A stretch of 63,595 bases of DNA, counting the filler, from Perkinsus chesapeaki ATCC PRA-425 (lineage: Eukaryota > Protista > Perkinsozoa): NCBI GenBank assembly GCA_013115145.1. It is 5 parts of 5 records of this genome, joined end to end, with 100 filler letters (N's around TTAATTAATTAA, not from the genome) between each part and the next. Parts side by side here need not be neighbours in the genome. Positions count along the whole stretch, not along the records: positions 1 to 12,972 come from JAAPAO010000802.1; positions 13,073 to 34,277 come from JAAPAO010000600.1; positions 34,378 to 48,337 come from JAAPAO010000767.1; positions 48,438 to 56,705 come from JAAPAO010000984.1; 1 more part is not named here. The stretch is one strand, 5' to 3'. Numbering within the stretch: the first letter of the stretch is position 1; every line of letters begins with the position of its first letter. The notes beneath the pieces are model-generated. The model was not told where the DNA came from and made no database searches. It was given only the letters and a program-made list of their open reading frames with translations. Shown piece by piece: positions 4,952 to 55,940 of this stretch. The position numbers and the translations under genes were made by a program.

Positions 4952-4995
4952 TACCCTTCCCGAGGATTGAACCCATGGCCTACTGCTCAAGAATG
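4952..4995 (-). other. Decayed tRNA 3'-end fragment (intergenic, upstream of Lon)
   Basis: Minus strand reads ggccatggg-TTCAATC-ctcgg-gaagggt-A: T-loop, 5-nt stem, 7-nt acceptor strand, discriminator A. No 5' half. Confidence 0.5.
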
Positions 4996-5047
4996 TCAAC
5001 AAGACTCAGTTGAGGATGGCTCAGTCTTACCTAAACAGCAGAGATAC

Positions 5048-5772
5048 CTAATCTTGCGCGCCGCGAAATTCACCCTCTTCGCTTCGTGGTCCACTTGTGA
5101 CGCTTTCACCCATTACCGAGTCATCACTCGAAAGCCGACTTGAGAGCAACTCCGGCAAGGCCCCTGGAGATGCTGTCAGCAAACTATGTAGATCCTCCGC
5201 TCTGAAGGAGGACGAAATACAGAACAACTCCACATAGGGCGGAATTTAAAGGAAGGCTCTAGGTTACGTAATAGATCACCTATACCTTTAATAAACATAA
5301 ACACCATTCAAAGATTCCTAATGCTCCCTCAACAACAACTGAGTACTACTACTACAACTACCGGAGGTGGTGATGTGAAGGTTAGCGGACCGTTATCTAT
5401 ACGCGATCCATAAGATATTTCACTCCTCACTTCACCGTTAAACTGTCGTAGTAATAAAAAAGTCCAGAAAACAAACCACACGCGCACCGATCCACTTCGA
5501 ACTGGTGCTGCTGCCACCCACTCACAGCAGAGCTGTATTCCTTTCCTCCCTGACCCTCAGATTTGTAACTTCAACATCATCCTCGTCCTCCTCCGCAGTT
5601 TCCCTTCGCTGCGGTTTCCAACCCTTCCGATCAAACAATCGATTCAATCCATCCCTAACTTCCCTCAAATCCTCGCATTTGGCAGCAACCTTAAGAATCC
5701 TCTCCGGCTCGAAATGCGGAAGACCGCTAACTCCCGCCAGCCAATCACCAATCACTTCGTCATTCGCCAACC
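5048..5772 (-). CDS. Unassigned coding exons, possibly a C-terminal extension of the ion channel gene
   Basis: Exon LANDEVIGDW...EEDEDDVEV follows a ccgtAG acceptor whose phase matches a potential donor at 6112 (GGG AAA AG|GTAGAA). No recognisable domain. Confidence 0.35.
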
Positions 5773-6109
5773 TACGGGCCGGAAAATTTCCACAATAGAG
5801 AAAACTCGCGTCCCTTTCGCGGACAATTCACTAAAGTTCCAGCTACACGCTGCTGCGTATTTTCTTGCAAAGCAGAGCCGATTGACCATTGCACCATGAA
5901 GAAATATCTTAATTTTACAGAGGTATAAAGCAGCATTACATACTTCTATCCATTTGATCACTTTAAGATCACCTGTCTTTATCACACTATTAATAATAGA
6001 GTGGTAAAGATGGTTAATGTTCAAGTGATAGACTAGAGTCTGGTGAAGATCGTAAAATAGTATTATGTATTCACCACAGCTTCCTCCATGCGCTTGGCAA
6101 CCCCTCATT

Positions 6110-9046
6110 CTACCTTTTCCCTTCCACGATCAATCCCTCCTCAATAAGGCCGCGTAAGCTTCTGCGAATTATCCCATTAATTTCCTTCTCGCCTTTGTCA
6201 GCCAATGAGTTCGCCAAAAGCAAGTCCAATTTAACTCCGAGTCGCCGACTATTGCTCTCCATACGATTCACAATACTCCTCTCGTTTCCCGCAAGTTCCT
6301 GCCGCACCTGACCACCACACGGCGTCACCTCCTCAAGCAATTCCATCATCCATGGGCCTACCCTCTCAAACTTTTTGTCCAAAGTGTACTGCACTCGCAG
6401 CAGATCCTTCCCTTTCGCCGGGCCCGCGATCCTCAAACACCCTTCGACGAATTCGGTGTAGGTGACCTGCCAACCCACACCTTCCCAAAGACCACCGTGG
6501 AAGATGATGACTATCGTTAAACAGGTAAAAACGTATCAGTAGCAAGCGGAGCTGTTACATATACTTGAGGCGTTCAAGTGGCGCGGAACGCCGACAGACT
6601 ACATTATTTTCATCACATATCTGTCCCAGTTCTACTGGGCCTTCGCCTCCGAAATCCTTACCCTTCTTGATTGACTTATATCAATCAGCCCAAACAGCTC
6701 CGCTGCATCACGAAGACTGACTTCCACAAACTTCAGCCGCTGCATTACATCCTCATTACGCAATACCTAATTGAGCTCCAATCAACCACTACCCAAAAAT
6801 CTCCATTTTTTGAAGATTGAAATTTTCAATATTACTTTCACAAACTCATCTTCGGATATCCACCCACGCCCATCTTTATCCGCCTCCTTGAAAACCTCGT
6901 GAAGATGATTAAATGCCTAATAATGCCCCACCCAGGGTTCGAACCCGGGTCGCGTGCATGACAAACTCACAGCTTGTCTAAATTCCTCGTTCCGCCGATT
7001 TTTCTCCTCATAATCCGTTCTCGACACCTCCAGCACCTGTGATTTCCTACACACGTTTTTCCAGCGGCAATCACTTACATTTTCGAGAATAACTCCCGTC
7101 ATCAATGACACTATAATAAAGTTCATGAAGAACACAAACGGTATTATCGTCAATGCGATGATCGACACATAGTGATTTGTGGCATAGAAACTGATGATAA
7201 ACAGGAATGTCGAACAACATTAAAAATCGGTAGCAATATTGCGCCATGTCTACTTTGTGTACATGCATGTAAATGCTTCCAGAACGAGCATATTTATAAT
7301 TTATCATATCCTATATTCGATACAAGTACGTACAAAGTGTTCGGAGCCAATGACTGAAAGAATACGTTCCTAGACTGGATCCGCTCCCATCCTTATCGAA
7401 CATCTATATAGATCTGGAATGCAGCACTTAGCCAGGCAGCTACTTCCAACGATTCTGATACCCTCCAACACAGCCAAGGCATCAATTCCCTCCACTACAT
7501 TTCCGGCCAGTTCTCCAAAGTGACCAGTTGAAACATGGTTAACATAGATTGAGGAACCGATCGGAATGGTGGCTGACCGTAGGTACCTGAAATAATACAG
7601 GCAAGATATGACAGTGTTATTGAGAGCTATTCGGCAGGCTTGCATTTTCCTTCAATAGGACTATATTGAGAAAGCTAAAACTCTACCAATATCGATTAAT
7701 GACGAGCAAAATCTTTCAGTGAACCTATTTCGCAGGCAAGGAAGTCAATCTTCACGAATGCTTCCAGGCCTCGTCAGACTATGTCCGTGCTTGTGGAATC
7801 CCGCCACTTTCAATCAAAGGAAATGCACAAAATTTTACAAAGTTAATAGCCCTCGATTAGTATCATGAATCCATCTTTTTAACATCGTGTGCCCCAAGAA
7901 GTTCGAAGAGAAAGATTCATTTTGCGAAGAGCACCGACTAGCAACGGAGAAGTGATGACAGTGTTACCCAAACCTTTGGCCAATAACTCCGAGTCAGGAT
8001 TGCCCAGATCATCCTTCCAGTCGTTGGCGATGTTCTTGGTGAATATCCTCATACCAACTGCTGCTACATAAATCAGAATTGTCATTAATATTACCATCCA
8101 CAACACCTAATAGCAATAACAGATGAGCCGCTGTCAAGTACCAAGATCGATTAATTAATCAATCAAGTGACACTGGCGATAACATATAGCTTTACGTCGG
8201 GAGACACTCCTCAAATGGCCGGCAAGACCAGTCACGCCTCGATCCGAGTACCCTTACAATTTTGAAAGCGCAATAGATGCCCCTCATTATTAGAGCCAAT
8301 GGCCGGAGGAATCGGAACAGTCGGGCGATTCTCGCCAGTCTCAGTAGTCTGCCGGTCCCTGAGGAGGAGAGTAACAAGGACGATAATATCTGGCTTACTT
8401 AAGAAGTTAAAGCTCGCCAAGCTTTCACCGGTGAAGAAGGGAACGATCCACATACCGACCACGTCCGATAGGACCAATAAGGTGTCGAACCAGTTCCATG
8501 TGTCACGAACCCAACTACGCCAACCCTCGTTCTCCAGACGAAGGAATAGTTCTACCGCAAAGATGACGAGAAAAATAGAGTTAATAATCAACCACGATAC
8601 GCTATCATCGTTAACGTCCAGATCGGTTTCAAGGCCAACTGAGACCGAATTGAGGAGGACCATTGCCGAGAAGAACATATTGGCTTTGCGGGACTCAACA
8701 GCGCGGATAGATACAGCGCGTACAGATAGTTGTCGAGTGACCAGCTTGCGCCAAAGGGAAGTGTTAATTCTTGGACGGATGTCATCTTCGGAACCGTTAA
8801 AGCTTGAAGAGTCGGGAATGACCTCGGAATCTGGGATGGTAATGCTGAGATGAGGCTTGGAACTCTTTGGGGTACCACTGTTAACCTGAGTATCATAGGT
8901 TGAAGCGAGGAAGATACGGAATAGGTCAGGATGCAAGGTCTTACTATTGATTTTTCTTTTTGCCGTGCGGCGACACTAAGCCTATCAAGCTTCCAGTTTC
9001 CATTAGATTCCCCTGTTGGAGTTGGAGGTACTGAAAGTGACGACAT
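6110..9046 (-). CDS. Single-domain 6TM voltage-gated cation channel (Ion_trans) with C-terminal EF-hands, multi-exon
   Basis: S1-S3 FFSAMVLLNSVSVGLET...WNWFDTLLV; S4 RLLRLARIARLFRFLRPL; S6 FMNFIIVSLMTGVILENV; EF-hands FKEADKDGRGWISEDEF and LFGLIDIS...VTYTEFVEGCLRIAGPAKGKDL. In-frame GT-AG introns at e.g. 8886-8944 and 6917-6970. ATG at 9046. Confidence 0.88.
6917..6970 (-). other. 54-nt intron consisting almost entirely of a sense tRNA 3' half (Asp/Glu-like)
   Basis: GTGAGtttgtcatgcacgcgacccggg-TTCGAAC-cctgg-gtggggc-A-ttattAG. Removing it joins NEEFRQA to AFNHLHEVF in frame. Confidence 0.75.
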
Positions 9047-9168
9047 ACCCAATAAAATTCACAGAGTAGAATAATCGATTCTGCGCAGTTATCGAGCGTT
9101 AGGAAAACTCAAGAATAGCAAGATTACGTAAGATTTACACACTAATCCATACTAGTAAATCTTTTAAA

Positions 9169-13145: not shown

Positions 13146-14539
13146 TTAAAAACTTCCAATTCGCCACCATCATCTAGGAGCTACAATTTTGGAGCTTTAG
13201 TGAAAACAATTTGAACGAATAAGGAACTTCAATTTGGATACATACTTCGTAACGCGACAAGGTCGACTTAGGCACCGTGGGGGGGGGGGGTACACCCAGG
13301 AAAGAACACTGGAGTAGAAGAGCAAACTAGACAAGCAAACGAAGAGAACACTCCATTGGGATCCATTCGTGCGCTCTAATCGCCACACTTCTCTCCCAGT
13401 ACCAGGGCAATAATTAGGAAATTATGGGAGCATTTCAGTGTGGGACGAGCAGTCCAATGCGGCATCAAACAGATCTGATGAGGGATGGCAGTAGTAAACC
13501 CACACATGCTGGGTAATAATGCAAACGAGTACTCCCGCAAAAGTCATTAACAGGCAAACTCTCAGAGCACAACCCGGGCAGCCAGACTACTGGTTGGATA
13601 AATCAGGTCGACGTCTTTCTATTTCAGTCAAGAGCTCTTGCCAAGATCCAGAGTATTTATCAGTCACTTCATCAATATGCATGGGATATTTCGATTCAGT
13701 CCCACTATTAGGGCACCATCGAATGTTACGAGAGTCTCAAAGAATTTCTTCGGAAGGAAACAAAGTCTAATCCAGCTATAGGGGCAGTCGCAGCCGAGAT
13801 TCGTTCTATGAGTCGGAGTCTGTGACATCCGCTGGTTCAAAATCTCAAAAGAGTATTTAGTCTCTCTTCCCCAGAACACGAGGGAAATTCTTGACAGTAT
13901 TACTTTACCACTGGCAAATCCCACGTTGGGGTTCCCAGCCCGATTAGTACGCGGTAGTTACCTTCCCAAAATCACGTCCAACCCTCTGCCCTAGTCACTA
14001 GGGCCTAGTGAGCTACCTGAGGATGCTAGAATGAAGGCATGCCTTTACGAGCCATCCAATAAAATTCCCTTCTCGGTTGAAACGCTCAGCAGAATATGGA
14101 TGATCAACGTTAATTGGACTTTGGGGAGAGACACCATAGAATTCATTCCGTCTCTCCTCAACAAAGCCAATGTCGAAATTAAACATTCCGCACTAGCCCG
14201 AATTACACAACCGTGTACTGTATGTACTGTAAGTAAAGGCAAATGGTCGCACTGAAATGTGAATCGATCAGAATGGCGAACGCTTTTTTGAATTCTCGTT
14301 GCAACGTGCCTTGTTGTGTTTGGTGGAGAGCAGCGTGTCGGTGATGTAAGCAGTTTATGAGCAGGAATACGCAGCTTCCACTTACTCTGCTTTGTTACTC
14401 CAACCAGGTTGAGCTAGAAAGATACTTTTAAGGCTTTTAAACTGTGTGTATTTAGGAGGTGTGAAAAGGATTTTTCAGTTGTTTTTCAAGGCCGTGTTCT
14501 TTCCAAGACTCGACCGAGCCATTTATTTTTTTGCCCAGA

Positions 14540-17500: not shown

Positions 17501-20500
17501 TAATCGTACGGGATGTGCCGATAAAATAGAGAAATAAAAAAATTAGTGCCAGCGAAAGTGTTGTGAGTTATACATGACACAATAATACGCTTTTATGGTA
17601 TATAAATATGGCAGTGATAAACCAATCGTAGTTTAATTCATTTTTTCCAGATACGTTCTTGAAGGTCACGAGCGTGGAGTAAACTGGGCATCGTTCCATC
17701 CCACTATGCCATTAATCGTTTCTGGTGAGGGCGATTTTTTCCGGAAGAATTTTGATTTTTTCCCGTAGGGTCGGATGACAGACTTATCAAGATTTGGCGA
17801 ATGGGCGATGGCAAAGCGTGGGAGGTTGACACACTTAGGGGTCATTTCAACAACGTCTCTGCAGTGGCTTTTACGAGTAAGAAGAATATTTAATTATACC
17901 ATATTTCCGTCTGATCGTAAGCCTGTCGAATAGGGAGTTTCATGTACTAGGTAACTTTGACTTAATCCCGCGTACAGCACGTTTCAGCAAGACTTTTTTC
18001 TTTTATAATTCGCCGGAAATTTTTCTGCCGGAATTTTTTCCCGGAAATTTTTTGGCGGTGGAAGATAATATTGTGTTATTCTCCAGCTAAGAAGGATCTG
18101 ATAATTTCCGATTCGGAAGATCGCACCATCAGAGTTTGGGACGCCACTAAGAGGGTTGCGATACACACCTTCAGGTAGGATGAAAGATTCTTCAGAGGTT
18201 GATTCGTGATCCTCAGGCGTGAGAACGATCGATTTTGGATACTCGCGGTGCACCCTACCAATAGCCTTATTGCCGCAGGTAAGATTCTTGAGGCCAGAAA
18301 ATGTGCAGTTGGAACGTTATTGAATTTTGACATGTTATTCATAAATGATATTGATAGTGATATCTTAATTCCTTTTTTTCAGGCCATGACTCTGGCATGG
18401 TTGTATTCAAGCTTGATAGGGAGAGACCAGTGTTCGCCTTGGGGAGCGCGAGTGGTCATAGTGGACAAGTAATACGAATGGGGAAATGATTTTTTATTGC
18501 TGCTTCACAGTATTGATATTACTTATATACACTGCGCGTCAAATTCTTATCAACTACGGTTTCTTCGATCTTGAAATTTAAATATCACGTATTTGGTATT
18601 ATGCGCTTGGTATATTGTGAAAATAGCTGTTATAGCTGACATACACAGGTGATTTCAGTGAGCTAGTCGCAGTCGTGCCAGATATATGGGAAAAGTAAGC
18701 CGACAAATTGTTATGAACTACTTTGAAAACTAATCTAACATGAGGATATCACAAGAACCGAGGGACCCTCATCTCAATCTTCTTCTATTCTTTTAGTCTC
18801 TTTATCTGGCCAAGGATGGTTATTTAACAGTACAGAATATCGATCAAGCTAAGGTGCAGCCGGGAACTACTGAGAGTAGGTCGGAGGTTCGATCCCTGGT
18901 GCGGGCATTTTATTGGTATTTATTTCCTAAGTCATTGGTAAGCTTGTTGAACCATCACTGTGATTAAATTTTCATTGATATTCATTCGCCCATTTTTGTT
19001 CATCGGGTAGGTTGTTGTTTTTCAGTCACGCCACAGACGACAAGTCTGGCGACTCTGAGGAGGCCACCGAATGCGATGGTATCGTCCTTGCGGCAATTGA
19101 TGGTGAATCCGTATTCCAGTACGGATATGAACGCAATTGTCATGTACATGGACCAGCAGAATGTTTGTAATAGGGGCAATAATCGATCAGGTGATCGATA
19201 TCTTTCTAGCGAGATCATCTTGCGCTGGCTTTCTCGAATTTTTTTTCGGCTAAATATGTAGACGAGCACGCATTCATTCCAAGACTGAAGGATTTGGATG
19301 GGGCAGTTTGGTTATCATCGTTTACCTGATCGATTGTGGTTAATTTGATAACTATCCTGGTAGATTATCAGCTCCGAAAAAATCGATTAAGTGATCGATT
19401 ATGTTATAGCTTATATTCCAGGTTCCTATGATCTATACACCTGCACCAACGCCCAGCTAACTCAAGGTCTCCGGGATCCCCTTGCCCCCAAGGAAGGAGC
19501 ATCTTGCAATGGAGCATGCTTTGTCAGTCGCAACAGGCTCGCGGTAATTAAAGTTGTCTTAATTTCGTACGCGAAAATTTTGTATTTTTATGCGTTTCTG
19601 AGAGCGAGTTATTCAGCAAGAGATTATTATATTATGAAGTATTTATTATAATATCTTTATTAATAATACTACTAGTTGTCTATAATAAGATAAGATCGAT
19701 ATAATATAGAGAATCGAAAAATGAAAGGGGAGTCAATTTTATGTGGTTTTTTCGAGATTGTTTGCGCGCTAAGCGTATTGTGAGTAAAACTGATATTTTC
19801 AATAATTATTATAAATACAATTTCAAAAGGGCGTGTAAGATTATTAACTCTTTAATTGTTGTTATGATAGTAAGATCGTACACGCGTAACTATTTTATAT
19901 TTTCAATATCAGGTGCTTCACAGGGATAACACTTTGGGGCTGTATAATCTCAATAATGAGCTGGTTAAGAAATTCGAACCTCCGGTGCCGAAGAATCAGA
20001 GTAATGTGGAGGCTATATATCAAGGAGGGAATAACAAGGTAATAGTTAAATCGATCAGGTGATCGATTATCTAGCATGCGTTCAGTGCCTTTTATAGTGC
20101 GGGAGTATCATGCATTTCGCCGAGATCCCCTATGTCGAGATGGGGATTTCTGAGCGGAAATTTCTGGGGAATTTTCGCTTTCGCTGGCGGCGAGGTTGTT
20201 TGGTGCAGAGTCGTTATTTTATATTTATACAATCGATCGCGTGATCGATTTTGTTTTCAAGGTTCTGCTCCGGTCCGGTGAAGTGGTGCAGCTCTTTGAC
20301 TTCAACGCTAGAAGTGTCGTTGGCGAGATCACCGTGGCTGGTGGGGTGAGATACGTTGTATGGAGCAAGAATATGGAGTAGGCACAGGTTCGATCCCGGC
20401 ACCTGTCATTATTCCTGTATTTTTAGTTATGTTGCATTCCTGGGGAAGCACAATATTACTTTGGCGAACGGACGCAATCTGGAGCTCTTGCATTCTTTGC

Positions 20501-23500
20501 ATGAGAATGTGAGGGTTAAATCAGGGGTAATATTTCGGGGAGAAAAGAGGGCAATTTTTTTCCTATGACAAATGGTTTGAAAATGCGGATGTTTAGGAGA
20601 ACGTGTTTTGGTTTTTTTGCGGGGAATTTTGGGCGTTATTAGTTGCAAATTTTTGGGCTGATCCGGAAATGAATATTCCTGTTTGAAAGAGCTGATGAGA
20701 ATAGAAGATCATTCAGAACTTTTCTGCATTTTTCAGAAAATTTTCAGCAAAATTTTCGGTGATTTTTGTGGAATTTTTTGTCAGGTATGGGACGAGACTC
20801 AACCAGGAGTGTTTGTGTTCACAACATTATCACATTTGAAGTATACGATAATAAATGGAGATTATGGCATTATCAACAGTAGGCGAAATTATACCATATT
20901 TCCGTCCGATCTTGATCACAGCGCGGACTGCATTGTAGAGTCGTTTCGAGAATAAAGTTAGTTGATCAGTATCAGGGAGAGAATCTTAGTTGAGCGGTAT
21001 CCGTGTCAAATCACCTTCGACTCGACGCGAGCCTGTGGGCTGTTGGTGCTGCTGCTACTGCTTCGATTGCTTATAGTGGGCACTTCTGAAGTACCTAGGT
21101 TTAGCGTAAAGTCGTTGAGCAAATAGAATTAACGATGGTAACACCATACGCGTTGGGCGGTTGCGAGATAAATTTTGGTACTTGCGAATGCATTACGATT
21201 GACTATGCCGAAAAGATTTAAATTGGAAAGTTACTTTCGCTTGGGCAGGCTTGGCTGAAGTTTACTATCTGTGTCGGGTGACGAAGCAAACGGTTGTCTA
21301 TCTGGACAGGGAGAATGCTATCCATAAGCGCCCTCTTAATAATGCAGAGTAGGTTGCAGCGTGCATTTCGGGGTGGAGAAAGATGCGTTTTTTGTTAGGT
21401 ACTGCTTTAAGGTTGCATTGTGGCAGAAACGGTATGATGATGTTAAGAAATGGATCAAGCAAGCTCGAGTGTGTGGAAATGTCAGCATAGGGTAATAGGA
21501 GGGGTATCTTAGGTTGATGGGGGGAAGATGCGCGAGAGGTTGGAAGGCGGTCGATGATGAACACGCTTTAGCTTCGATTGTGAATATGAGAATCCATTTA
21601 CAGACCGAGTCTTCCAAACTCATGAGAAAGGTTCGCACATTTTTTGAAGAAAAAGATTTCTATTGCCATTTTGGTATCAAATTGATGTATGGTTAATGAT
21701 ACCATTACCTCTGTAGTATTACATTGTGTATCAATATATACTTTAGAAGAGGGCTTATGTGGATAGATACTCATTATTATCAACTTATTATATTCTATCT
21801 ATCACCGTCGCTCGGTCACTCTGGTCAACAAGTAACACATTTTCTTCCAGCTATTCAACACCAACACAGTGTGTTTCCGATTCATCCTTTTTTCCGATTT
21901 TTCGAGTTTTTTCGTTTTTTTTGTTCCTTCGTGAAGCCTTATTTTTGTATGCTAAAAGGTGGTGCTTGGCGTAGCTTACCAATTTCTGCGCAGCTTTCAT
22001 ACCGTATTTTCCTGCAGGTACCTTAAATCTAAGGGGTACCCAGAAGTAGCCCTTCAATTCGTTGATGATCCGCTCACGCGGTTCAATTTGAGTCTTGAAT
22101 TTGGTCATCTCGACGAAGCCCTCAGTTGTGCGAAGAGGATCGACCAGAAAGTAAGTCGCAGGTTCGAATCCCAGGAGAGGTATTTTTATTTTAGGAGGTT
22201 TGGGGTCGACTCGGTAAGGAGGCATTGAGGCAAGGAAATGTCCAGGTAAGATATTACGGATTCTCTCGTGAGTTTTCAAATTGATTTTTCGTGGAAATTG
22301 GCGGCAGTTGGGATAAGGGTGGAAAATTAGGTTTTTTCGCCTAGAAATTTTTGGGGAATCTTCTCACAGATAAGTAGTGTATCGAAGAGTGTAAATCATT
22401 CTAAAAATATCATTTCTAGAGGGTGAATGACGATGTATTTTGGGAAAAATATTTTTCAGATGGTTGAAATGGTGTACCAGAAGACGAGGAATCTTTCCGG
22501 CTTGTCATTCCTTTATTTGTCCACCGGAAACCGCGACAAGCTGAAAAAGATGTTGACGATTGCCAAAAAGAGGAATGATCCTATGGAAAGGTAACTGGGT
22601 TTTCTTGCAATTTTATTGCATTTTATTGGTTAGGTTCAATACTGCTATGTATCTTGGGGATGTTGAGGAGCGCGCGAGGGTGTTGGCTGAGGCGGGACAG
22701 TTGCCGTTGGCCGCAATTATGGCTAGTAATAAGGAGGATATCGATGAACGATTTAATATGGGAGAATTGTCAAACGATTTATAATGGGGAAATCTTAATG
22801 TTTAATTAGTTTCTTGTTTACCTTTTGTACACTTTTCTGTGAAGATTGGATTGTGCTCCGCACGGGCCAAAAATTGTGAATATAATAGGTTTGTAGAGGG
22901 AGAAAAAATATGATTTACACGGTTCTAGTGGGAATGTTTGGTGGTGTTGTAGATTCATTTGAGTTTATTATTTTTATGCAATTACTTGCTCAATTTCTAT
23001 ATTTCTGTATCTCTGTCGCACTTGAATCTAAGCTGGATTTGTGTCCAACTCCACGTGAACGACTTTATCATTCTAGCAATAACTAAGAGGAGATTTCTGA
23101 GCTTAATTCTTCTACTTGGTCGATTGGTACGAAGATACGGAAGTCGCGCCATGAGTGGATAGTAGGGATTTGTATTATGTTTCAGAAACATACGGGCTGG
23201 ATGATCTCTATCAGGAGTTATCTGCCGGCAATCAAGCGCTGACTGGTAAGTGTAAGGAGGATTAATGATTATTATTTTTCGGTTTTTCTATCAGAAAGCG
23301 CGCCGGATGTCAAGTCGTCGTTGTTGCAGCCTCCAGTGCCGCTAACGCAAGCAGCCACGACCAACTGGCCTTTCTTGATGAGCATGGAGCAGATCTTCGA
23401 TAATAAATGGGCGGGTGTTGAGGAGGCAGCGCCGGCTGAGGAGGAGCAGCAGCAAACGTTCTTGCCGGGCTTCGATGATGAGGAAGAAAACGTCGCCAAT

Positions 23501-26406: not shown

Positions 26407-26551
26407 AGACAAAAGCGCACGCCCGGCTGATCGATTTGATCTGGTCGGTAGGTTTCTGGTCGGCAATATTTCCTTTGAGATTTCGGTTTGGGTTTGGCTT
26501 GATTGAGGGGTAATTTTCAAGTGTAATTGAAATCACTGTTTCCATTGTAAA

Positions 26552-32571: not shown

Positions 32572-32989
32572 CTCAAATGAGGGTGATAGATAAGAAGCTA
32601 TTGATATGAGGAAACCACACAATTGTAAAAACCCGCTACCCTGAATGAACCCGTGACTCGAGTATCACGCGCGATTGATCAAATTCGTTAGTTCCACGCA
32701 GATAAGAAGGGTCCCCACGCTTAAGTGACTAGGAATGGGCGCGCTCCACTGGTCGAGGTACACGTACGGTGCTACCGCCCCAATCGGATTCTCGTCTTTG
32801 CTACGTGCTCCACGATACGATAAGTCATAATGACGATATGAGCGGTGACACCCACCGAAAGCTATTCATAAGCTCAGAACCTAAAGCTCTTGGAAGTGAT
32901 TAAGAAGCTCACGACAAGCCTACAATAAATAAGATTATGCGTCGAAGCTCATTACATTGTGACGTAGACCCTGTGGCACGCGTGCAACA
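32572..32989 (-). repeat. ~418-bp element, copy 2 of 2, directly 5' of the esterase
   Basis: Colinear diverged copy of 30325-30729. Confidence 0.85.
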
Positions 32990-34443: not shown

Positions 34444-34480
34444 GTGGCCGCGGGTTCGACCCCTGGAAAACACATTTTTT
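34444..34480 (+). other. Decayed tRNA 3'-end fragment (Val-like) with T6
   Basis: gtggccgcggg-TTCGACC-cctgg-aaaacac-A-tttttt. Follows a GTGAG, possibly intronic in a gene cut by the gap. Confidence 0.6.
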
Positions 34481-34869: not shown

Positions 34870-37800
34870 ATGGTTGTTACCAATACTAGCGAAGGGACGG
34901 GCTCGAGCCCTATTAAAGACACCACAGACAACGCCAATGGCAGTCCTTCCCCACCGGCCACTGAAGCATCGAAGACCGGCAAGGAAGACAAAATAGAAAT
35001 TGATGCTAGATTTGACGCGGTTGAATTTTTCAAAGAAGAGTTGAAAAATGAGGATGTATCTGAGAGAGCCAAATGCGCTAGGAGAATGCATTTGATAGCC
35101 AATCATATAGGACCACAGAAAACGGTGTCGATTTTGGTAAGGGTAGATAGCTGTGGCATTTGAGGAGAGAGCGGTTTGCAGATACCTGTTATATGGGATG
35201 CAATACAGAAGAAGGGAATATGTGCCGATGATGATGAGGTAGTCTATGTGGGGTTCACAAGTTAACCTATTTTGGATCTTTGTTATCGAGCTTTGCAGTG
35301 ATATTCTAGAATCTTGTATCGGTATTACTAGTCATAGTGGAGCGTTGAATGTTGAGCTTAGAACGCATGCATTTGTTGCTTGTGTTTACGGTAGTCACAT
35401 ACCCTCTATGAAAATTTTCTCCCCACTAGTAACATATGTCTTTTCAAACGTTTCATTATCTAGCAACACATCCGATCAAACTCTCTATGGTATATCATCA
35501 TTTATAAGACTTCCGAAGCATTAAATGATGAATCCCTGCTGCCCAGGTCCTCTATGCGATGGCCTCCAGCCTGCCTAATCTCATTCCTCATGTGGATGGA
35601 AGATACGAGGTATTAGCGCTCGAGTCAACCTCTGACGTATCTTTTTCTCCCTGTAGTCGTTGGTGCCCCCATTGGAGTGTTTGGCCGGCCAGGATGAAAC
35701 GGTTATTAGGAACACCGCTGTCCAAGGGCTTGTAAAAGTCGCTGAAACCAGCGATGCTATTTGTCAACAGTATTGCTTTCCGGCACTAGTGAGGTAGAAC
35801 TTTCGGGGGGATACGGCTCAGTGTATGACTCGTTGGTCTATTATGTGAGTCTGATTATCAGATTTTTTTATGGTTGTATGGTTTATATTGTGACATGAGA
35901 CACATAGGTGTATATTATTAATTCTTATTACGCGGTATAGTAGTATTAGTATAGGTCAATATATAATCATTATGTTTGTTAATACCGCTATGTACACCCC
36001 TATATAAGGCGATATGGAATGGCACTACTCCGCTCCACCATACATTTCAAAGAATCAATGTCATGTTGCTAACGTGTAGACTAACAGTGATGATAGCTGC
36101 GTTTGTTGAGAGGGCCCGAGGAATGACCCAGCCCGCGCAAGGATACAAGTGCTGTCAATCGATTCTTATGCTCTAATGATCTTGAAGTCATCAGATGGAA
36201 GTCCAATGAGCGCTTCAGTGTTGATCTGTAGTTCCATCAGTACTGCATGGCCATTAGTATGATCGTTTGGAGATCATTTCTACCTGATTCTGTTGTCCAT
36301 AAAATAATCTCCCTTGCATTTCCACGGTTGTTGTATTTCAGGTTAGCTGCTGGTGAATGGTTCACTTCTAGAGTCAGCGCATGTTCCTTGGCACCGGGTA
36401 GGATACTTGGCTGATAGTGATAGGTCTGTTGCAGCATTGCAGTGACTAGGTATATACAATCATTGTAGCGAGCAACAGAAGGCTGAGATAAGGAGGATAT
36501 TTGCCAGTCTGGCGACGGATGAATCTCCTATGGTTAAAAGGGCTGCGGCACAGCAGACACGGTAATAAAGGGAAGGGATGCTTTAGCTTCGTAACAGTGA
36601 CCCTGCAATTCATCGACAGAGACCTTATGTGGGTGGGGGTAGGACATTCTGAGGGAACTTACGAAAATATTTATGTATAAGTATATTTTCTATGGCGATT
36701 TAAACGGGAAATTCAGAGCCTCTCTGGGAGGCGGACAGATGCTTGATTACGACTAGGAAAAAGGGAGAGGGGCTGAGTTGAGAAAAGCTAAACGGTCGCA
36801 TTAATTACTCCGTCATGTGGGATTTTAGAGCAACAGTTGTGGGAGCCGAGCCCAGAAGTAGCGCAAAGAGTGCCCCCTCCTTCGCTAGGAGAATATTTTC
36901 TATCAAATTTTCTGGTACTTCTCGGGACTGGGATTGATATTCGACCTGGCATGTGTTACCGGTACCTACTATCTATTATTTTGAGCCCGTATCTGAAACG
37001 TTGGTCCCGAATCGAGCGACTTAGATGGTTTGTCAAGGACATAGCGAAGAGTCTCATTAATGGGGTGATGTTCCTTTATGCTGGTCCTTTAGATACTTGT
37101 TTAATGTGGTTGATAAGGACTCTATAGTGTCAGAGTTATTGGTAATACACAAAGCTCAGGCGATTGATAGTGTCCAGGATGCTATAAGGTAGTAGCTGTT
37201 GTTGTTGTTTTGATATAATAGGTTCATGGTATTGATTTTTAGGGAAGCATGTGTTCATACTACCTTAGTATTGGCGGAGAAACTGAGCGAGGAGGAGAAC
37301 AGGTAGTAGGAGGGTAGGCTTGGGATTATAGGAGTCGTAAAGTGAATAAATTGTATCAACAATTATATAATTATTGCGTATCATATGAACCATATAATCC
37401 GTATTGGCTCTCTCGGTTCTTCTGCATTGTTGACAATAATAGACCTTATGCTTACTTTTTGTGTCTTTTTAGGCAATACACTTTATGGGCGGTGACATTA
37501 TTTTTTACGGATCGTTCATGGAGGGTGAGGATCCTCATGGCCAAGTACTTTGACAGACTGTGTCAAGCATTAGGGTAGGTCTTGGTGGGTTATAAGGGCT
37601 CGCTTGGGAATAGAACCAGGGATCGTTGGGTTTACTGTCTGGTACTCTACCGAGGGGCTATTGTTCCAGGCCAGAGCTGACGACATCAGAGCTCCTTCAG
37701 CCCTTCACAGGGCTTCTAAAGGACCCTGAGCAGGACGTTCGCATAGCTGCTGTCGAGGATATTGATAAGGCCGTCACTGTGCTATCGGTAATGCAGCTGT

Positions 37801-39767
37801 TCAGTGCACACATCAAGCTTGGATACGTGCAATCAGGTCGATCAGCTTCAATCGTTCATCGTGCCCCAATTTTCGGCATTGGCAAGGGACCAATCTCAGC
37901 CAGTTAGAGCTGCTTTAGCTAATGTTATTGGAGCAGTTGCTGAATCTCTTGGTAGTACTGGGGGCGGTTGTTGAAGGCAGCCTTATGGGCAGCCTGTAGC
38001 ACTAGTGTTTCGGGAGGACAAAACCTATTTCTAACGGGGAGCCTGGACAGGGGTGACGATGCCGCGGGAATTCCAGCGCGCTTTAGTCTGATCTCCTCCC
38101 CAGTTGAGCTCTGGAATGGTGTTAGAGAATTAGTTCTTCAGTATCTGGACGTGCAACAATTTACCGAAAATGTGTGGGCGAGTTTTCTCGGTTTCGAGAT
38201 ATGTAGGGGAAATTATCCACATATTTGAGCAATAAATAAAAGGGCCGTGTTTGATGATTAGGTCGTGAAGCTACTCAAAAGACACTGCTTAATTTAATAC
38301 TAGATCTAATGAAGGATGAGCATCATACAGTAAGGCTTAATATGGTATCACAGGCAGCTACTATATGTGGGGTAAGGAATAGATTCTGATAGAATTTTAG
38401 GAGATTGCTGAAAGGTGCTTGGCTTGGACACTATGGTGTCGTCAGTGCTTGGAACTGTGCAATCACTGATAATGGATAACCAATGGAGGATCCGTTTGGC
38501 GGTGATACAGCAGATGCCTAAGTAATAGGAAGCCAGTATCCTCGGTTAAGGTTTGGATTAGGCTGGCTGGTCTGTTTGGACCAGAGCTATTTCAACAGAA
38601 GCTTGAAGGGTTGTTTCTGAGTAGTTTAAACGACAGTGTGTATAGTGTTAGGGAGGCGGTTATTGACAATATACAGGTAATACAAGGAAGGATGCTGCTT
38701 ACATTGGGTTAGACGCAATTACCACCCTAGCGGGAATGTGTTTATATTGCGAAGATATACTAACTCCAATGTAAAGAATGTTCCTAGAACGAAAAGACAC
38801 ATCGCACTTATTCTTTCTGTGAGCACTTGACGTTCCTCACTGGCTACTTACTGGGGAGTTGATAGGGAAAGAGTGGTATGATGGATGAGAGTAGTTGGAA
38901 TGGAGCCGTCTAGGTTTGCATTTCGCTGTTTGTGGCAGCTGAAAGTAATGGACAGTAATTCTGCTCTGTATTTTCGTGCGCATTGGAGGCTTCGATATCA
39001 TCATTGGTTACTCACTAGTCATTTTCTTTTCAACGTGATTTTTCAGCCCATATCTGAGGTCTTCGGCGCCCAATGGACCGAGGAGCATTTGCTTCCTAAA
39101 ATCGTGGAGCAATACCATCAAGTTCAAGGACAGGGATACAGTGGACGCCTCACCACACTGCAGGCGGTGGGATTGTTCGGCGGCGAGTTTCCCTAGTAGT
39201 GTTAGTGGTATTTAGTTGCCACGATTGACGTATGTGATGAGCTCTGAGCAAGTGGAGCAGCATATTATGCCGGTGTTGGTTAAAGCTACAAAGGATCCTG
39301 TACCGAATGTTAGGTAGTACGGTATATAAGGGGGATTGTGATAAAGGGGAAGAGTAAATGGTGTATTTGGGGGGAGGGGCAGTGATGTGCATTACTCCAG
39401 TAGTAAGATATTTTTTGTGTTATATATCAGCACTAGACGTTAAGTGATATTCTCATGAGAGCGTTCATCGAGCAGTAGGTGTAAATATGTATTTGATGAT
39501 GACAAGGTTAGGATTGTGGTAAGTGACAATATTATTCCTAGGTTCACTGCATGTGAGTGTCTCATTTGGATGTTGGAGAATCATAAGTTGGATAACCCAA
39601 TGATGGTCACTCAGTCATTAGAGCCAACTGTAAAGGATGTCTTAGCTCATGAGAAGGATGCTGATGTGAAGTAAAAATGCCCTAGCCAGGGATAGAACCG
39701 AGGACCTTTTGATATCTGCAGGTATATTGCGCAGAAAGCATTGGATGTATGCATTAAAGTGACGTAG
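34870..39767 (+). CDS. PPP2R1A: Protein phosphatase 2A scaffold subunit A (PR65, HEAT repeats), multi-exon
   Basis: FFKEELKNEDVSER...IGPQKT; LAAGEWFTSRVSACSL; LLKDPEQDVRIAA; DPVPNVR; EKDADVKYIAQKAL. Confidence 0.93.
37598..37662 (-). pseudogene. Near full-length decayed tRNA (Tyr-like, GTA), antisense inside PP2A-A intron 37575-37669
   Basis: Minus strand: tagcccctCGGTAGAGt-accagacaGTAaaccc-aacgatc-cctgg-TTCTATT-cccaa-gcgagcc. D-loop, anticodon and T regions recognisable; stems broken. Confidence 0.6.
39671..39721 (-). other. 51-nt PP2A-A intron made of an antisense tRNA 3' half plus T5
   Basis: Reverse complement reads aaaaggtcctcgg-TTCTATC-cctgg-ctagggc-A-ttttt-ac. The host donor GTAAAAA is the complement of the T-tract end. 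Confidence 0.7.
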
Positions 39768-48525: not shown

Positions 48526-50686
48526 GATCTTCTATCTTTCGAGGAGTGAGGTTTTCTGCGTCCGATAATCTCCATCCCTCAGGTCCTCCGTGATGACGAG
48601 TTAGTGACGATCGACGGGACCATTCCCACCGAGGAGGAGCCGTCTGTAGTTTACGCCCTGCCACCACCAACAGCAACAACAGTCGATACCACAGAGAGGC
48701 ATATACGGCTTGATGAAGCATCAACTTCAACGCCGAAAAAAAGAAGTTTTCGAGAAGTTCGCAAGGGAACGCCGAAACCAAAGAGTCGAGCGTCGGAGGA
48801 GAGCTCAGAATCTAGCAGTGATGAGAGTTCCGATGAGGGCAGCTCCGACAGCGAAAGCGATGAAACTGTTTCGGAGGTGGTTAAGACGGTTAAACCTGTT
48901 GCGAACGAGGAGACGTCATCTTCGAGTTCGGAGAGCAGCGAATCTTCTGAGAGCTCGGAGAGTGAGTCAGAGCCGACACCTGAAGCGAAGCGAAGGAGAG
49001 TTGATGAGAGGAAGGTTATAGGAAACGGTAAAGTGAGGTTTGTGGCTGCAAAGGATAGTGGTTTGGAGAAGACTGATGAGACGGCTTGGAGGTAATAGTG
49101 GGTAAAACGCTGAAGTCCGAACAACGATGAAGATTTGATCCGATGTTTTGATATCGACCTGGCGAGATTGTTCTTTCCTATCTGTAATATATCGTATGTC
49201 TGTCGTAGGAAAAACGATCTTTCTGCTTCCTCTTTTTCGGAAATGAATATCTTGTCGATCGAAAAACTTTCTACGAAAGGCCACCTTCCGGAGCTCAAGT
49301 CGATCCTCTCCAGCTTGGTCAGAATTTTTTGAAATATTTCCGAACTTTGTCGAGTCAGGTTTAATGACTGGCATGAGAAGACTGAGGATTTGCGTGCCGG
49401 TCAGTGCTTGAAGTTCCGCTGTCTGAAGGCAGATCCAGTAACGGGGAGCAGCAGATTGGGAGACGCGGAGGTAGTAGGGTGTGGGATTCGAACCTGGGTC
49501 GTTTGCATGAAAGAATGAGTGCAGGTTTGGAAGCTTTTGGCGATGGATGAAGGGAAGGCTGTTTTAGTGGATGAGAAAGGCCGGCATGATGTAGGAGTGG
49601 GAAAACCTTTATAGTGCGAAAAGATACTGTAAAACCATTATGGCGCGAAAAGATTCTGTAAAACCTTTATGGCGCGAAAAGATTCTGTAAAACCTTTATG
49701 GTGAGAAGAGATACTGTAAAACCTTTATGGCGCGAAAAGATTCTGTAAAACCTTTATGGTGAGAAAAGATACTGTAAAACCTTTATGGCGCGAAAAGATT
49801 CTGTAAAACCTTAATGGCGCGAAAAGATACTGTAAAGTAAAACCTTTATGGCGCGAAAAGATTCTGTAAAACCTTTATGGCGTGAAAAGATTCTGTAAAA
49901 TCTTTATGGCGCGAAAAGATTCTGTAAAATCTTTATGGCGCGAAAAGATTCTGTAGAATCTTTATGGTGAGAAAAGATTCTGTAAAACCTTTATACAGAA
50001 GTGCCCCACGAACTGCATTGATGTTTGGATGCTTTTAGGTGATTCCAGAGAAGGATATGTTCGGGCTGATGATACACGATCCTGTTAGTGATAAAAAATT
50101 GGAAGATATAAATAATGGGGATAAACAAGGTGATGGTTGAGGGAGGATTTGAACCTGGGCAGATGGATACATTCTTTAGAGGCGCACGTCGCTTCCCCAA
50201 GCGGCCATAAAGGCCCTAGGATTTCCTCTCTGGCGTACGTGCCTCCGACGGCGACGGACAAGGCCGCTCAGAAACGACAGAAAAAGAAGTTTGGTGCGAT
50301 ACGGCGTCAAGTGGAGTGGTGGCTGAACCGATCTAATTGGGAGAAGGACGAACATCTTAGGAGCTTGGTAAAGGACATGTGCATGCGTGCAGGTTTGTTG
50401 TGTCACACTGTCCCTGTAGGCGTATCCTGGGACGCATTGGGTGCCTATACATGAGTTGATGAAGTTCGATCGGCTTCGAGACTTGTCGGACGACCAAGGG
50501 GAAGTGGTTCATGTCTTACGAACGGAGCGATGCGGCAAACAAGGTCGGAGGGCATCCAATCAACCTTTCAAGAATCTTTCTTGTGTGTCAGATCCACGGG
50601 TTGAGGTCTCACCAGATGGGTTCTATGTTCGCCATAAATGCTGGGCGGAGGCGGATACTTCTGGAGGGCCGAAAAAGGCGGCTTAG
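48526..50686 (+). CDS. 5'-truncated nuclear protein: Ser/Glu-rich region plus C-terminal La motif; N-terminal and Tudor-like segments resemble coilin
   Basis: La motif IRRQVEWWLNRSNWEKDEHLRSL...WVPIHELMKFDRLRDL...VEVSPDGFYVR. Exons join in frame across introns 48546-48582, 49471-49524, 49591-50038 and 50130-50179. Confidence 0.75.
49471..49524 (-). other. 54-nt intron made of an antisense tRNA 3' half (Glu-like)
   Basis: Reverse complement reads ctttcatgcaaacgacccagg-TTCGAAT-cccac-accctac. It shares tcatgca..cgaccc.ggttcgaa.cc with the intron at 6917-6970. Confidence 0.75.
49602..49993 (+). repeat. 29-bp tandem minisatellite, ~13 copies, inside intron 49591-50038
   Basis: Unit aaaacctttatggcgcgaaaagattctgt with point variants, head-to-tail. 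Confidence 0.95.
50130..50179 (-). other. 50-nt intron containing an antisense tRNA 3'-end fragment
   Basis: Reverse complement reads gcccagg-TTCAAAT-cctcc-ctcaacc-A-tcac. Confidence 0.6.
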
Positions 50687-50727
50687 ATGTCAGTTAGAGT
50701 GTTTCTTTAAATGATTTGAATGTTTGT

Positions 50728-50763
50728 AAAAATACCGGGCGTGGGATTCGAACCTGTGCGGAT
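50728..50763 (-). other. Leu-like tRNA 3'-end fragment plus T5 in the 94-bp spacer between the La-motif and RING genes
   Basis: Minus strand reads atccgcacagg-TTCGAAT-cccac-gcccggt-A-ttttt. Confidence 0.7.
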
Positions 50764-50780
50764 AGGACTGTTATAATTCA

Positions 50781-52745: not shown

Positions 52746-53495
52746 TCACATCATCGATCGTTGTTTTTTGCGTAATCCTGTTCGACAAGCAAGTCGGCGG
52801 TTCCGGCCGACGACTTTGCGATTGTCGTATCCGTCTGAATCGAAATCTCACAGTCTCTTTTAAACGTGAAGATACCCATTGTAACATAAAGAGCACGTTA
52901 CTGCCACGGATATTTCGTCACTCGCCACGAAATGTCAGGCCTGGTTTGTTCAATTGCTTAGAGGCTGTAGGTGAGTGAGTGGAAGCGTTGCGTTGAGTAT
53001 GTCAAGATTTTGGGGAAAAGTTGGGGGAAATACGGTATGAATGTTGCACGCATGCGCATAGGCTAGCACGAGCAAAACTGGGACACACTGGGGAGGAAAT
53101 CACACACTTTGGAGGGTACATTGTCGCGGCAGACAATTTATCATTTATTATATCATTACTCTTAGTAGTTAGTTTCGGTGAGCAAGCTCCAATTCCAGTT
53201 TGCTTGTCGGCTGGACTTTAAGCTAGAACATGCTGCTGCTGTGGTAGAGTAGTTCAATTGGGTATATCGAACCTGTCAGCTGCTGCTGCTGTGTGCTTAT
53301 GAGTATTATGTATCCATATCCCCTGTGATTTTAGGGGTATATTGTTTTATCCAACCATTTGCTGTAACGCTACGTACGCTGTCTATCAACGAAAATTCGC
53401 CTAAGTTGGTGCAGGATTTGGTAGCTGGCTCGCCGAATGGCATTGAAATTGTATTAGTTTTATTTTCTTTGGATCCATAAGGTTTTCCCTCTATA

Positions 53496-55940
53496 ATGCT
53501 TTCTCGTTGCATCTCAGCGTCAACTGCTGCACTGCCGAGGCTGGCTGCCACATCACGTTTTTTTTCAACTCACGGGGCTCTTGCCGACAAACTTAAAGGG
53601 ATTGTCGACGAAGCCAAGTCCACCGGGACGTGAGTCTGCACCCAAGTTGTTATGTTATTATCTTTGCTTCCAACAGGTACAAGTCCGAAAGGATTATCAC
53701 TTCTCCACAAGGAGCAAGCTTATATGTTGAAGGCAGCAAGCAAAGAGAGATACTTAATTTTTGTAAGATGATTCTAACCGGTTCATCCATCGGCCACAGT
53801 GTATGGTAGATTGCGTCGTAGTCTGTCGTTGAGGTGTCTCCGCTTGTTTAGTGCGTAGAATCGGATCGTTTTTTCATGCGAGAATAATAGAGCTATAATA
53901 TAGAATGTTTCAAGAAGGGTCTGATGCTTCCTTCTGGGCTGGGATCCTTCCCTAGAAGTTTCGTAGTAACTTTGGCGTCAGCAACACATTTCTGTGGCGT
54001 TAGTTGGTTCGTATGACTTGGCAATGACTGAAGGTGCAGCGTTGCAAAAAGAGAAATTGAGAGGGAAATTTCACCGAACCCGAAACCCTAAAATTTAACG
54101 GAAAAAACCCGAAACCCGATTTCGACCGTTCTTGTGATATGGAGGAGTCTTCCCACGCAGGGTCCAATGGGCAGTTTATCACTTTTTCCGAAACTTGTCA
54201 CACTGTTTTCTCTCAGGCGCGAACAACTACCTTGGTCTGTCTAACGATCCTGAGCTGGTCGCTGCCGCCAAGGAGACATTAGGAAGCCATGGCTTCGGGC
54301 TCAGCAGTGTCCGGTTCATTTGTGGAACTCAGGATATTCACAAAAAGTTGGAGAAGACGATTGCCAAGGTAAGGAAGGGTCTCAAGTTGAGCTCATTGGT
54401 ATCTTTCGTGGTTCAGTTTCACGGTATGGAGGATTGCATACTTTTCCCGTCCTGTTTTGATGCCAATGGCGGCATTTTTGAGACGCTGCTGGGCCCAGAG
54501 GATGCTGTCATTTCCGACGCTCTCAATCATGCTAGTATCATCGATGGCATTAGGTTGTGCAAGGCACAAAGATTCAGGTGGGATTGATCGGGTGGATAGT
54601 TTGTTAAGTTTTCATTATGGCGATCCGGGTTCAATTCATTGTATTGTAGATATAACCATATGGATATGGATGATTTAGAGGCAAGGCTGGAAGAATCCAA
54701 AAGCGCCAATGTAACCCGTATCAGCGATTTCATCTCGCTCAACCATTTAGTGCAGATTCGTCTAATAGTAACTGATGGCGTTTTCTCAATGGACGGCGAT
54801 GTGGCGCCGCTGGACAAGATAGTTGAGCTTGCCAAGAAGTGATCGATCGTTGTCATTGCCGAAGTGGCACACTTCTCTTAGGTATCCTAATACCTATGTT
54901 ATGGTGGATGAATGTCACGCTACAGGAGTCTTCGGTGCCAACGGACGAGGCACTCCTGATATGTTTGGCGTTAAGGTTGATATTATCAATTCTACACTGG
55001 GGAAGGCTTTAGGTGGGCCGATGACCGCTACGGTTGTTCAGTCGATATTACTTTCCTACAAGTCCCGAAATGAGCGGAAGGTCTTGAGATAATTTGATTA
55101 TAATGGCTTTATTTGAAATAAATCATCTTCACGAAATTGATGTCACCTGCCCCTCGTGGCTGACTGCTACGAACTTCATGTTCCGTCAACGGCGGCGGCG
55201 GCCACTCGTAGACGTTGGGAGAAGTGTCATGTTCATAGAGGCGGTTTGCGATCTTACTGATGCTTGTTAATATATCAATAATATTTATCTTTACTATTCA
55301 AAGCGTCATACGTACGTTCCTACTCTCTCGACCAGGTGGTGCTACTGGAGGATACACAGCGGCAAGTAGCGACATCATCGAGGTTATGCGACAGAAGGCC
55401 CGTCCTTACCTTTTCAGCAACTCGGTAGCTCCCAGTGTTGTTGGTGCCAGCCAGGTTAGCCTTCCAATGCCTAATTGTTGTGATGCCCATTTTAGGTCGC
55501 ATTTGATCGCTTGGAAAAGACACCTGAGCTGCAAGAAAGGCTTGCTAAAAATACGGCCTACTTCAGGTTTGCCGTTGATGTTGTTAAATTGCCACCTGGT
55601 CTTTCAGGAAATCCCTCAATCGTGCCGGTTTCACGATCCTAGGGGATGATCGCTGCCCTATAGTGCCTGTCTTACTGGGGGACGCGAGACTTGCTACACA
55701 GTTTGCCGATGCACTCCTTGACAGGGATATCTATGTTATTGGCTTCAGCTATCCGGTTGTTCCCAAAGGTCAAGCGAGGATCAGAGTGAGTTGTGAACTT
55801 GTACCGTTTCAATACTGCTGCTCGTACAGGTTCAACTGTCAGCTGCCCACACTGAAAAACAGCTTCAGAAGGCGGTCGCGGCCTTCATTTCGGTTGGGAA
55901 GGAATTAGGCGTACTCGAGCCTATAACCGGGGATGCGTAA
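53496..55940 (+). CDS. GCAT: 2-amino-3-ketobutyrate CoA ligase (glycine C-acetyltransferase), mitochondrial, multi-exon
   Basis: [91 protein letters not shown]; presequence [16 protein letters not shown]. Confidence 0.96.
54578..54649 (+). other. GCAT intron containing a decayed sense tRNA (Glu-like) anticodon/T-arm fragment
   Basis: ttttcattatggcgatccggg-TTCAATT-c; related to the fragments at 6917 and 49471. Confidence 0.5.

Follow-up and report, generated by a model that had tools for sequence, protein, structure and literature searches.

What keeps the T-loop of a tRNA intact in introns and between genes when most of the tRNA around it has gone? The question is raised by a stretch of DNA from Perkinsus chesapeaki, a protist parasite of shellfish (63,595 nucleotides, here called the window), which consists of five contigs joined by linkers of N and holds 63,243 bases without them. 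An earlier note on this DNA, which equated the T-loop with the B box of RNA polymerase III (Pol III) promoters, listed 12 T-loop sites and read them as copies of tRNA 3' ends; the count used here is 13, those 12 and one more at 23534. Ten of the 13 are intronic and three lie at gene junctions; eight are sense and five antisense to the host or neighbouring gene; their density in the window's 63,243 bases is ~205 per Mb, or about one per 5 kb. Judged on their sequence, the sites are relics of tRNA genes of several isotypes, and are neither tRNAs nor a short interspersed element (SINE). The balance tips modestly toward the view that these old 3' remnants of roughly 30 bases have kept their B box under purifying selection, as a predicted DNA site for TFIIIC resembling the extra-TFIIIC (ETC) sites of yeast and worm. 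What had been a side remark of the earlier note, that the fragments might be extra-TFIIIC sites, has become the reading that, by analogy, fits best.

The pattern of B-box relics in the window is real. A strict B-box pattern finds 11 matches (10 sites, one of them a palindromic double) compared with 0.51 +/- 0.69 in 100 shuffles, and the box followed at exact tRNA spacing by an A and a T-rich tail occurs 8 times compared with 0.02 in shuffled sequence, an enrichment over chance stronger than had been estimated. The A and T tail stands at offset 0 in 6 of the 10 perfect-box matches and at most once at each of 12 other offsets. All 12 T-loop sites first listed are present at their positions, although they were chosen out of 31 GGTTCRA and 7 GGTTCTA matches. 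Nine of the 12 have an A at tRNA position 73 in exact register, five of these nine continue with 4-6 T, and none has an added CCA, all as originally described. A matrix made from the 12 sites, each left out in turn, scores 11 of them at 12-35 bits and 54578, where the tRNA likeness ends after the loop, at only 3.6; run along the window, it picks up a single strong addition, 23534 (29 bits), all other new matches lying at shuffle level. The top 12 of 19 matches to a profile of 50 outside tRNAs (a training set partly retrieved with one site's motif) are 11 of the original sites and 23534. The original list stands, then, in 11 of its members, with 54578 weak and one strong site omitted. Among the 13, nine distinct sites have a perfect box and four a box with one mismatch.

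Descent from tRNA genes is legible in several of the relics. The alignment of site 37575 to a tRNA profile spans D-loop, anticodon arm and T-arm. A 23-base motif of 23534, comprising variable arm and T-arm, falls within tRNA-Leu at both of two loci, and a 20-base motif at 18886 lies inside called tRNAs at 55 of 63 loci, representing eight amino-acid types; at the loci with the latter motif the letters that follow are always pairable, whereas the window's own are not. ARAGORN and Rfam find no tRNA in the window, only 37575 reaches the D-loop, the T-stems are mostly unpaired, and the relics lack the cloverleaf of paired T-stem and acceptor stem that a functional tRNA would have. The claims that the fragments do not function as tRNAs and that they come from tRNA-gene ends of several isotypes, with the genomic T-run and without CCA, are both borne out. 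A SINE head, with A box and B box, is likewise missing (1 of 13 sites aligns to the D-loop region), and the mean pairwise identity of the sites at positions 63-71 is 0.34. The many near-identical intron copies and transposon ends of Introners are not found at the relics, nor was a continuum of decayed copies found when it was sought in the window. Relics are more alike within genes than between them (0.61 vs 0.54, P=0.019) in a post hoc comparison with gene groups drawn by eye.

Other copies were searched for with 22060-22270 only, a narrow test confined to the 22151 element. In two DNA runs that may be the source of the window, its piece recurs at three other loci (X1) and as nine short pieces, six of them listed (X2). 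The look-alikes listed share 83-89% identity with it over 36-47 bases and do not extend beyond the intron, and an AG follows the piece within 10 letters at all four distinct single-contig loose ends among the 11 of 18 loose-end rows listed. Because they stop at the intron and are followed so closely by AG, they seem to be other mini-introns of the same build. An exact 22-base match of the 3' end of 22151 to tRNA-Leu in two metagenome contigs shows only that this could be a tRNA end, and does not point to a source. The two copies at 22151 are set apart by point differences at positions 50-51, so that a chimeric origin through T-loop recombination, though possible, need not be assumed.

The intron map was made by exact spliced matching of two annotated P. 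chesapeaki proteins, the annotations being predictions: one window exon matches the alpha-COP protein (P0121) and another the PP2A scaffold subunit (P0125), each at 100%. The map has 39 introns in alpha-COP, of which two are plainly annotated wrongly when compared with the P. olseni protein, and 18 in PP2A-A. The intronic placement claimed by the earlier note stands, but its word 'validated' does not: all introns here rest on protein homology or reading frame. P. olseni alpha-COP, which provides independent support, runs unbroken across all four element introns, and among PP2A-A homologues an insertion is present at residue 654 in 0 of 124 and at residue 317 in 4 of 146; a search of PP2A-A representatives found no homologue reading through the element introns. 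The basis at 6917 is a gap against the P. olseni protein, and at 49471, 50130 and 54578 it is the reading frame. Six short introns said to be essentially fragment measure 54, 49, 44, 51, 54 and 50 nt, as given. A size of 44-54 nt is nonetheless not special, because 39-61 nt is the ordinary short class (28 of the 57 mapped introns), and the intron at 18876 is 150 nt long. The element is present in 6 of the 57 mapped introns and in 4 of the 28 measuring 39-61 nt. Public gene models appear mis-spliced at 14632-14692, 24064-24478 and 37952-38203, since they differ there from P. olseni or PDB homologues, and an in-frame 6-nt micro-exon, preceded by AG and followed by GT, is possible at 18930-18935, inside the 150-nt alpha-COP intron; the annotated proteins skip it. 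Around the junction relic at 50729, positions 50726-50765 may form a 40-nt intron in a UTR.

The case for selection on the box is that it has outlasted the structure to which it belonged. In the outer T-stem 8 of 36 pairs are Watson-Crick at the relics, as opposed to 123 of 147 in real tRNAs. In stem and acceptor strand the G/C skew is +0.56 for sense and -0.44 for antisense elements (Fisher P=2e-6); the sign flips with orientation, and the relic stems are therefore G-rich on the sense strand of the host gene either way, as ordinary introns are (+0.21 to +0.26). Perfect boxes number 10 vs 0.67 in shuffled sequence, boxes with one mismatch 28 vs 22 (maximum 31) and boxes with two mismatches 194 vs 230. 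In a simulation of uniform decay without strand bias, applied to 47 real tRNA halves, the state of the stems requires a per-site change of at least 0.3, which predicts at least 36 one-mismatch relics for every 9 perfect ones. Uniform neutral decay fits badly, because the stems are unpaired yet damaged boxes are scarce. C48, which was not a selection criterion, is present in 9 of 9 perfect-box sites (simulation P<=0.007); over all 13 sites C48 is found in 12 and G46 in 10, and over the 12 complete sites Y72 is found in all and A73 in 10. That such insertions are merely tolerated, as the earlier note had it, fits poorly, because the box was kept while the stems were overwritten.

The T-run, as far as these small numbers go, is kept in 6 of 7 complete sense elements and lost in 3 of 4 antisense intronic ones, the one that keeps it being 39671, in which its reverse is the splice donor. 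The remainder of the relic thus seems, from its sequence, to be kept only where splicing uses it, and the suggestion that the T-run doubles as a splice signal holds where it adjoins a splice site. Selection against T-stem pairing was also considered (own halves pair less than swapped halves, P=0.012) and was dropped as an effect of strand bias because permutation within orientation gives P=0.09.

Other Perkinsus lineages offer a second view of some of these sites. Over 14400-27900, run X2 contains alpha-COP and SUMO twice, the second copy being diverged, Perkinsus-like and of similar depth; this copy is absent from X1 and has one SUMO intron replaced by a stretch ~330 bases shorter; a mixed culture, a hybrid and a polyploid sample are candidate readings. 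The diverged alpha-COP copy carries the P. olseni residue at 715. It crosses intron 22151 free of gaps and at the same length, with 6 differences in 44 positions vs 13 in 31 third codon positions of the listed flanks (P=0.007), 9 of the 30 differences of this copy being near piece ends and outside the listed rows; 0 of 11 box positions have changed vs 5 of 14 free positions (P=0.046). At 23517 the diverged X2 contig has, among the differences listed, a perfect box, three acceptor-strand changes and no gap; two ordinary short introns in the same comparison have 4 and 3 gap events among the gaps listed. The four P. olseni predictions that fuse across the junction before Lon are, when back-translated, all compatible with C48, box, Y72 and A73 at exactly one place, and that place is the junction before Lon, in the same orientation; seven other proteins treated likewise yield one compatible offset. 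A read-through open reading frame (ORF) of P. marinus type, P0123, has a 14-codon (42-nt) insertion at the 23517 position. Positions of element-bearing introns are thus common to the diverged Perkinsus copy (22151) and the P. marinus-type ORF (23517).

Retention of the box is likely to reflect its maintenance by selection as a putative TFIIIC docking site. All 13 sites agree with the B-box consensus exactly or with one mismatch, and the relics lie outside any intact Pol III gene. The use of both orientations, together with the three sites outside introns, fits a DNA element, and a conserved B box that is free of structure, tolerates either orientation and occupies introns and junctions is, by analogy, the anatomy of an extra-TFIIIC site. 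A possible source would be the hundreds of tRNA gene copies and the Dada transposons that cut them, pieces of which would have landed in introns and junctions. Intronic tRNA genes or pieces may then have lost the A box and the 5' half by deletion (37575 resembles an intermediate) and shrunk until only the box and the parts useful to the spliceosome were left: donor positions +3 to +5 would come from the variable loop, and either the pyrimidine tract (sense) or the donor (antisense) from the terminator. If TFIIIC does bind and behaves as it does at the ETC sites of yeast and worm, its effect would be on chromatin boundaries, nuclear positioning or SMC loading, and not on RNA production.

Several points weigh against this interpretation. 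The perfect box of 22151 was the reason for choosing this site, and a fair estimate of the chance that none of 11 box positions changed on the other branch is therefore 0.02-0.07. The comparison of lineages comes down to three sites, one of them seen by back-translation and one, 23517, in a comparison of which 40 of 321 substitutions and 12 of 34 gaps are listed. A second diverged X2 contig, at 22204, lies outside the intron-22151 comparison. The insertion in P0123 has at least 3 box mismatches in sense or at least 2 in antisense; because it lacks a compatible box, the 23517 site is not universal and an intron stands there without the element, and the window's own copy has one box mismatch. 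The tRNAs used for reference come from viruses or prokaryotes, and some of them were chosen by pattern. Since the box is nearly palindromic, an RNA-level motif is still compatible with both orientations. A search of the literature found no paper that names both TFIIIC and Perkinsus.

In a larger scheme, thousands of tRNA genes would have seeded dual-purpose mini-introns, born with both splice signals and gained without a transposon, and at the same time selected TFIIIC anchors every few kb that organise the chromosomes of the sister lineage of dinoflagellates; this we regard as doubtful. Neutral decay of functionless tRNA scraps is an unlikely explanation too. Under it the intact boxes would be an effect of ascertainment and the T-runs of splice-signal constraint, and the genus does have very many tRNA gene copies (PMC3706591, in the part of its text available). 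The free positions at 22151 differ at 5 of 14, a near-neutral rate, the box is absent from one orthologous intron, 23534 is damaged, and 54578 and 25783 are weak. No single decay rate, however, accounts for the state of the stems and at the same time for the rarity of damaged boxes; the scores are bimodal, new matches above 6-12 bits being at background level; and the box is unchanged in the diverged 22151 copy, as the element apparently is kept at the P. olseni Lon junction, where Lon itself is 68% identical.

It is quite unlikely that tRNA 3' halves are intron cassettes, whose insertion into exons creates introns without a transposon, a process that would leave room for selection to act on the box afterwards. 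The variable loop does suit a donor strikingly well, and the T-run a pyrimidine tract. In seven introns of 44-54 nt there is hardly anything besides the relic, but minimal intron size alone forces similar spacing, 3 of the 13 sites are non-intronic and three host introns measure 72-150 nt. Of the 6 sense introns, 3 (the 150-nt one included) have their donor 9-10 nt upstream of the box, 5 of the 9 listed look-alike pieces start exactly at the donor position, an AG follows each of the four loose ends counted above, and the reversed T-run forms the donor at 39671. Near-identical copies of the 22151 piece are nevertheless lacking, as is a joined (intron-less) DNA form there, and the P. marinus-type sequence has the 23517 intron without a compatible box. 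A signal in RNA, whether an enhancer of splicing or a small RNA processed out of the intron, is very improbable as the keeper of the loop sequence. With 10 of 13 sites intronic and a box that nearly equals its own reverse complement, both orientations could give a similar RNA motif; the hairpin is not kept, though (8 of 36 pairs), three sites are at gene junctions, and most short introns splice without a box, which only 4 of 28 in the two genes carry. A tRNA-derived SINE or Introner family that is active now or was so recently would account for dispersed, tRNA-derived, T-tailed sites at ~205 per Mb but is largely refuted, there being no A box in 12 of 13, no common body (identity 0.34 at positions 63-71), nearest listed look-alikes only 83-89% identical, and an intron and piece common to the diverged copy. 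An ongoing wave of insertion is likewise not supported.

Table 1. Relics of tRNA 3' ends in the window and a further repeated motif, with positions along the whole stretch.
Feature	Position	Strand	Context and basis
tRNA 3'-end relic, tRNA positions 44-77	4948..4981	-	junction upstream of Lon gene; sense to neighbours; perfect B box; P. olseni read-through proteins compatible
54-nt intron, EF-hand ion-channel gene	6917..6970	-	relic from about the anticodon arm on; sole site with fully pairable T-stem; P. olseni gap
Relic at 5' end of 150-nt alpha-COP intron 18876-19025	18876..18911	+	donor 10 nt before box; 20-base part an exact match to real tRNA genes
49-nt alpha-COP intron = relic	20378..20426	+	protein matching, tRNA profile
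44-nt alpha-COP intron = relic	22151..22194	+	diverged Perkinsus copy: same length, unchanged box
46-nt alpha-COP intron, relic absent from earlier note (site 23534)	23517..23562	+	Leu-type variable arm; one box mismatch; 29 bits
41-nt alpha-COP intron, possible heavily decayed relic, outside the 13	25783..25823	+	two box mismatches; not above 6 bits
Relic upstream of PP2A scaffold (A) subunit gene	34445..34479	+	perfect box, six T
95-nt PP2A-A intron (gene +), antisense near-full-length tRNA relic	37575..37669	-	D-loop to T-arm, profile positions 16-63; no Rfam tRNA match
51-nt PP2A-A intron (gene +) = antisense relic	39671..39721	-	reversed T-run = splice donor; insertion in 0/124 homologues
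54-nt intron (gene +, La-domain-like, weak La match), antisense relic	49471..49524	-	frame; T-run lost
50-nt intron of La-domain-like gene, antisense relic	50130..50179	-	frame; T-run lost
Antisense relic between La-domain-like gene and zinc-ribbon protein gene	50729..50762	-	perfect box, five T
72-nt intron, aminotransferase class I/II gene, weak truncated box-like site	54578..54649	+	frame; 3.6 bits leave-one-out; absent from tRNA-profile matches
ATCGAT spaced palindrome	4211, 19182, 19382, 20050, 20232, 23663, 24830, 25004		pattern count

The host gene of the 54578 site (Table 1) is one that we take to be glycine C-acetyltransferase-like. The window holds other repeats. A spaced palindrome, two ATCGAT hexamers six bases apart with a variable spacer, occurs in 8 copies vs 0.02 in shuffled sequence; six are paired, 10-22 nt inside both ends of three alpha-COP introns of 216-255 nt, one is in the Lon coding sequence, and the palindrome recurs in many other contigs. 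A second DNA-binding motif is one possible reading, the ends of miniature inverted-repeat transposable elements another. Two short alpha-COP introns, 16090-16135 and 21349-21398, are closely alike over most of their length, a likeness that suggests another family of repeated mini-introns; a high-copy repeat with a depth 6-10 times that of its flanks occupies 18525-18700 in an alpha-COP intron, and most of a 44-nt alpha-COP intron (16243-16275) is matched by 6-9 other contigs. Two RNA-like runs cover the SUMO gene but, of alpha-COP, no more than short stretches that are diverged; their contigs confirm three GT-AG introns in the SUMO gene (26517-27869) and have extra 5' letters at 26517 resembling a spliced leader. 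The Lon protease ORF (2621-4882, minus strand) is intron-less and has 68% identity to its P. olseni and 57% to its P. marinus counterpart; the next-best matches are bacterial or metagenomic Lon at 34-40%, and an old lateral transfer is possible. Tandem arrays are built of a 29-nt unit in an intron (49600-49995) and of an 18-nt coding-like unit at a contig start (56806-57020). Near-identical blocks lie 4.46 kb apart at 58258-59150 and 62720-63595, and a diverged upstream block (30459-30709 and 32703-32962) precedes two intron-less ORFs on the minus strand. A bacterial promoter scan gave no matches and is irrelevant to the question.

Across yeast, worm and mammals the number of ETC sites ranges from eight to thousands, and where they came from is mostly unclear. 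In the Perkinsus relics the tRNA-gene ancestry can be read base by base, through stages that begin with an almost complete gene (37575) and end with the box alone, and they allow a direct test of the co-option of Pol III promoters as chromatin sites. Their density would mean thousands per genome if it held outside this gene-rich window, in a lineage next to the dinoflagellates, whose chromatin is unusual. A literature search that did not extend to the P. chesapeaki genome paper and supplements turned up no description of tRNA fragments or B boxes in Perkinsus introns, and the available portions of two Perkinsus papers (PMC3101222, PMC9399869) contain no mention of such relics. What is added here is evidence that points to selection on the box; the relics are ETC-like, and membership of the ETC class is itself putative. 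Should their positions turn out to be lineage-specific as well, the relics would represent a source of spliceosomal introns not known before.

tRNA pseudogenes and tRNA-derived SINEs are dispersed, T-tailed and intronic in both orientations. The Perkinsus relics are all of these and tRNA-derived as well; unlike them, they lack the A box and 5' half in 12 of 13 cases, have no shared body, shared tail or young copies, and conserve the box while the stems are rewritten. Introners, which are near-identical transposon copies, likewise form repeated short introns of one build, whereas the Perkinsus pieces are diverse, old, tRNA-derived and in some cases not introns. A search for terms in the main text of an Introner survey (PMC9860276) found no mention of Perkinsus or tRNA. 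The Dada DNA transposons of P. marinus, whose genome has >500 tRNA gene copies in five types, cleave tRNA genes within the A box and are able to link pieces of tRNA to other DNA (PMC3706591), which makes them a possible source of 3' tRNA pieces. Relic 37575 starts near the A-box region; 12 of the 13 start far downstream of it, and neither transposon sequence nor a target-site duplication was seen at the sites, Dada sequences not having been searched for.

The closest likenesses are to isolated B boxes. In Dictyostelium ribosomal DNA (rDNA), the consensus of such boxes has a conserved G and C upstream of the core (excerpts of PMC3159450), just as G and C at tRNA positions 46 and 48 are kept in Perkinsus; the Dictyostelium boxes sit on the rDNA palindrome and, in those excerpts, have no tRNA homology outside the box, whereas in the Perkinsus relics the tRNA register extends as far as position 73 and the T-run is retained. 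ETC sites of S. cerevisiae and the chromosome-organizing clamp (COC) sites of S. pombe are, in the text available, isolated B boxes without a transcribed tRNA gene, as the relics are (PMC3395662; bioRxiv 10.64898/2026.04.27.721182). The former, known at eight intergenic loci in yeast, have boxes with a 10-base 3' extension, are conserved between species, are bound by TFIIIC alone and act as insulators and tethers (PMC3395662, in part); C. elegans has 224-268 sites, and TFIIIC is needed there for condensin binding at tRNA genes (bioRxiv 10.64898/2026.04.27.721182, in part). At the Perkinsus sites, too, conserved letters (Y72 and A73) reach ~10 bases 3' of the box, which may parallel the yeast extension in length. 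As far as these partial accounts allow the comparison, the Perkinsus sites, known from sequence alone, differ from those of yeast and worm in being mostly intronic, in occurring about once per 5 kb and in overlapping splice signals, and they visibly derive from whole tRNA 3' ends with the terminator.

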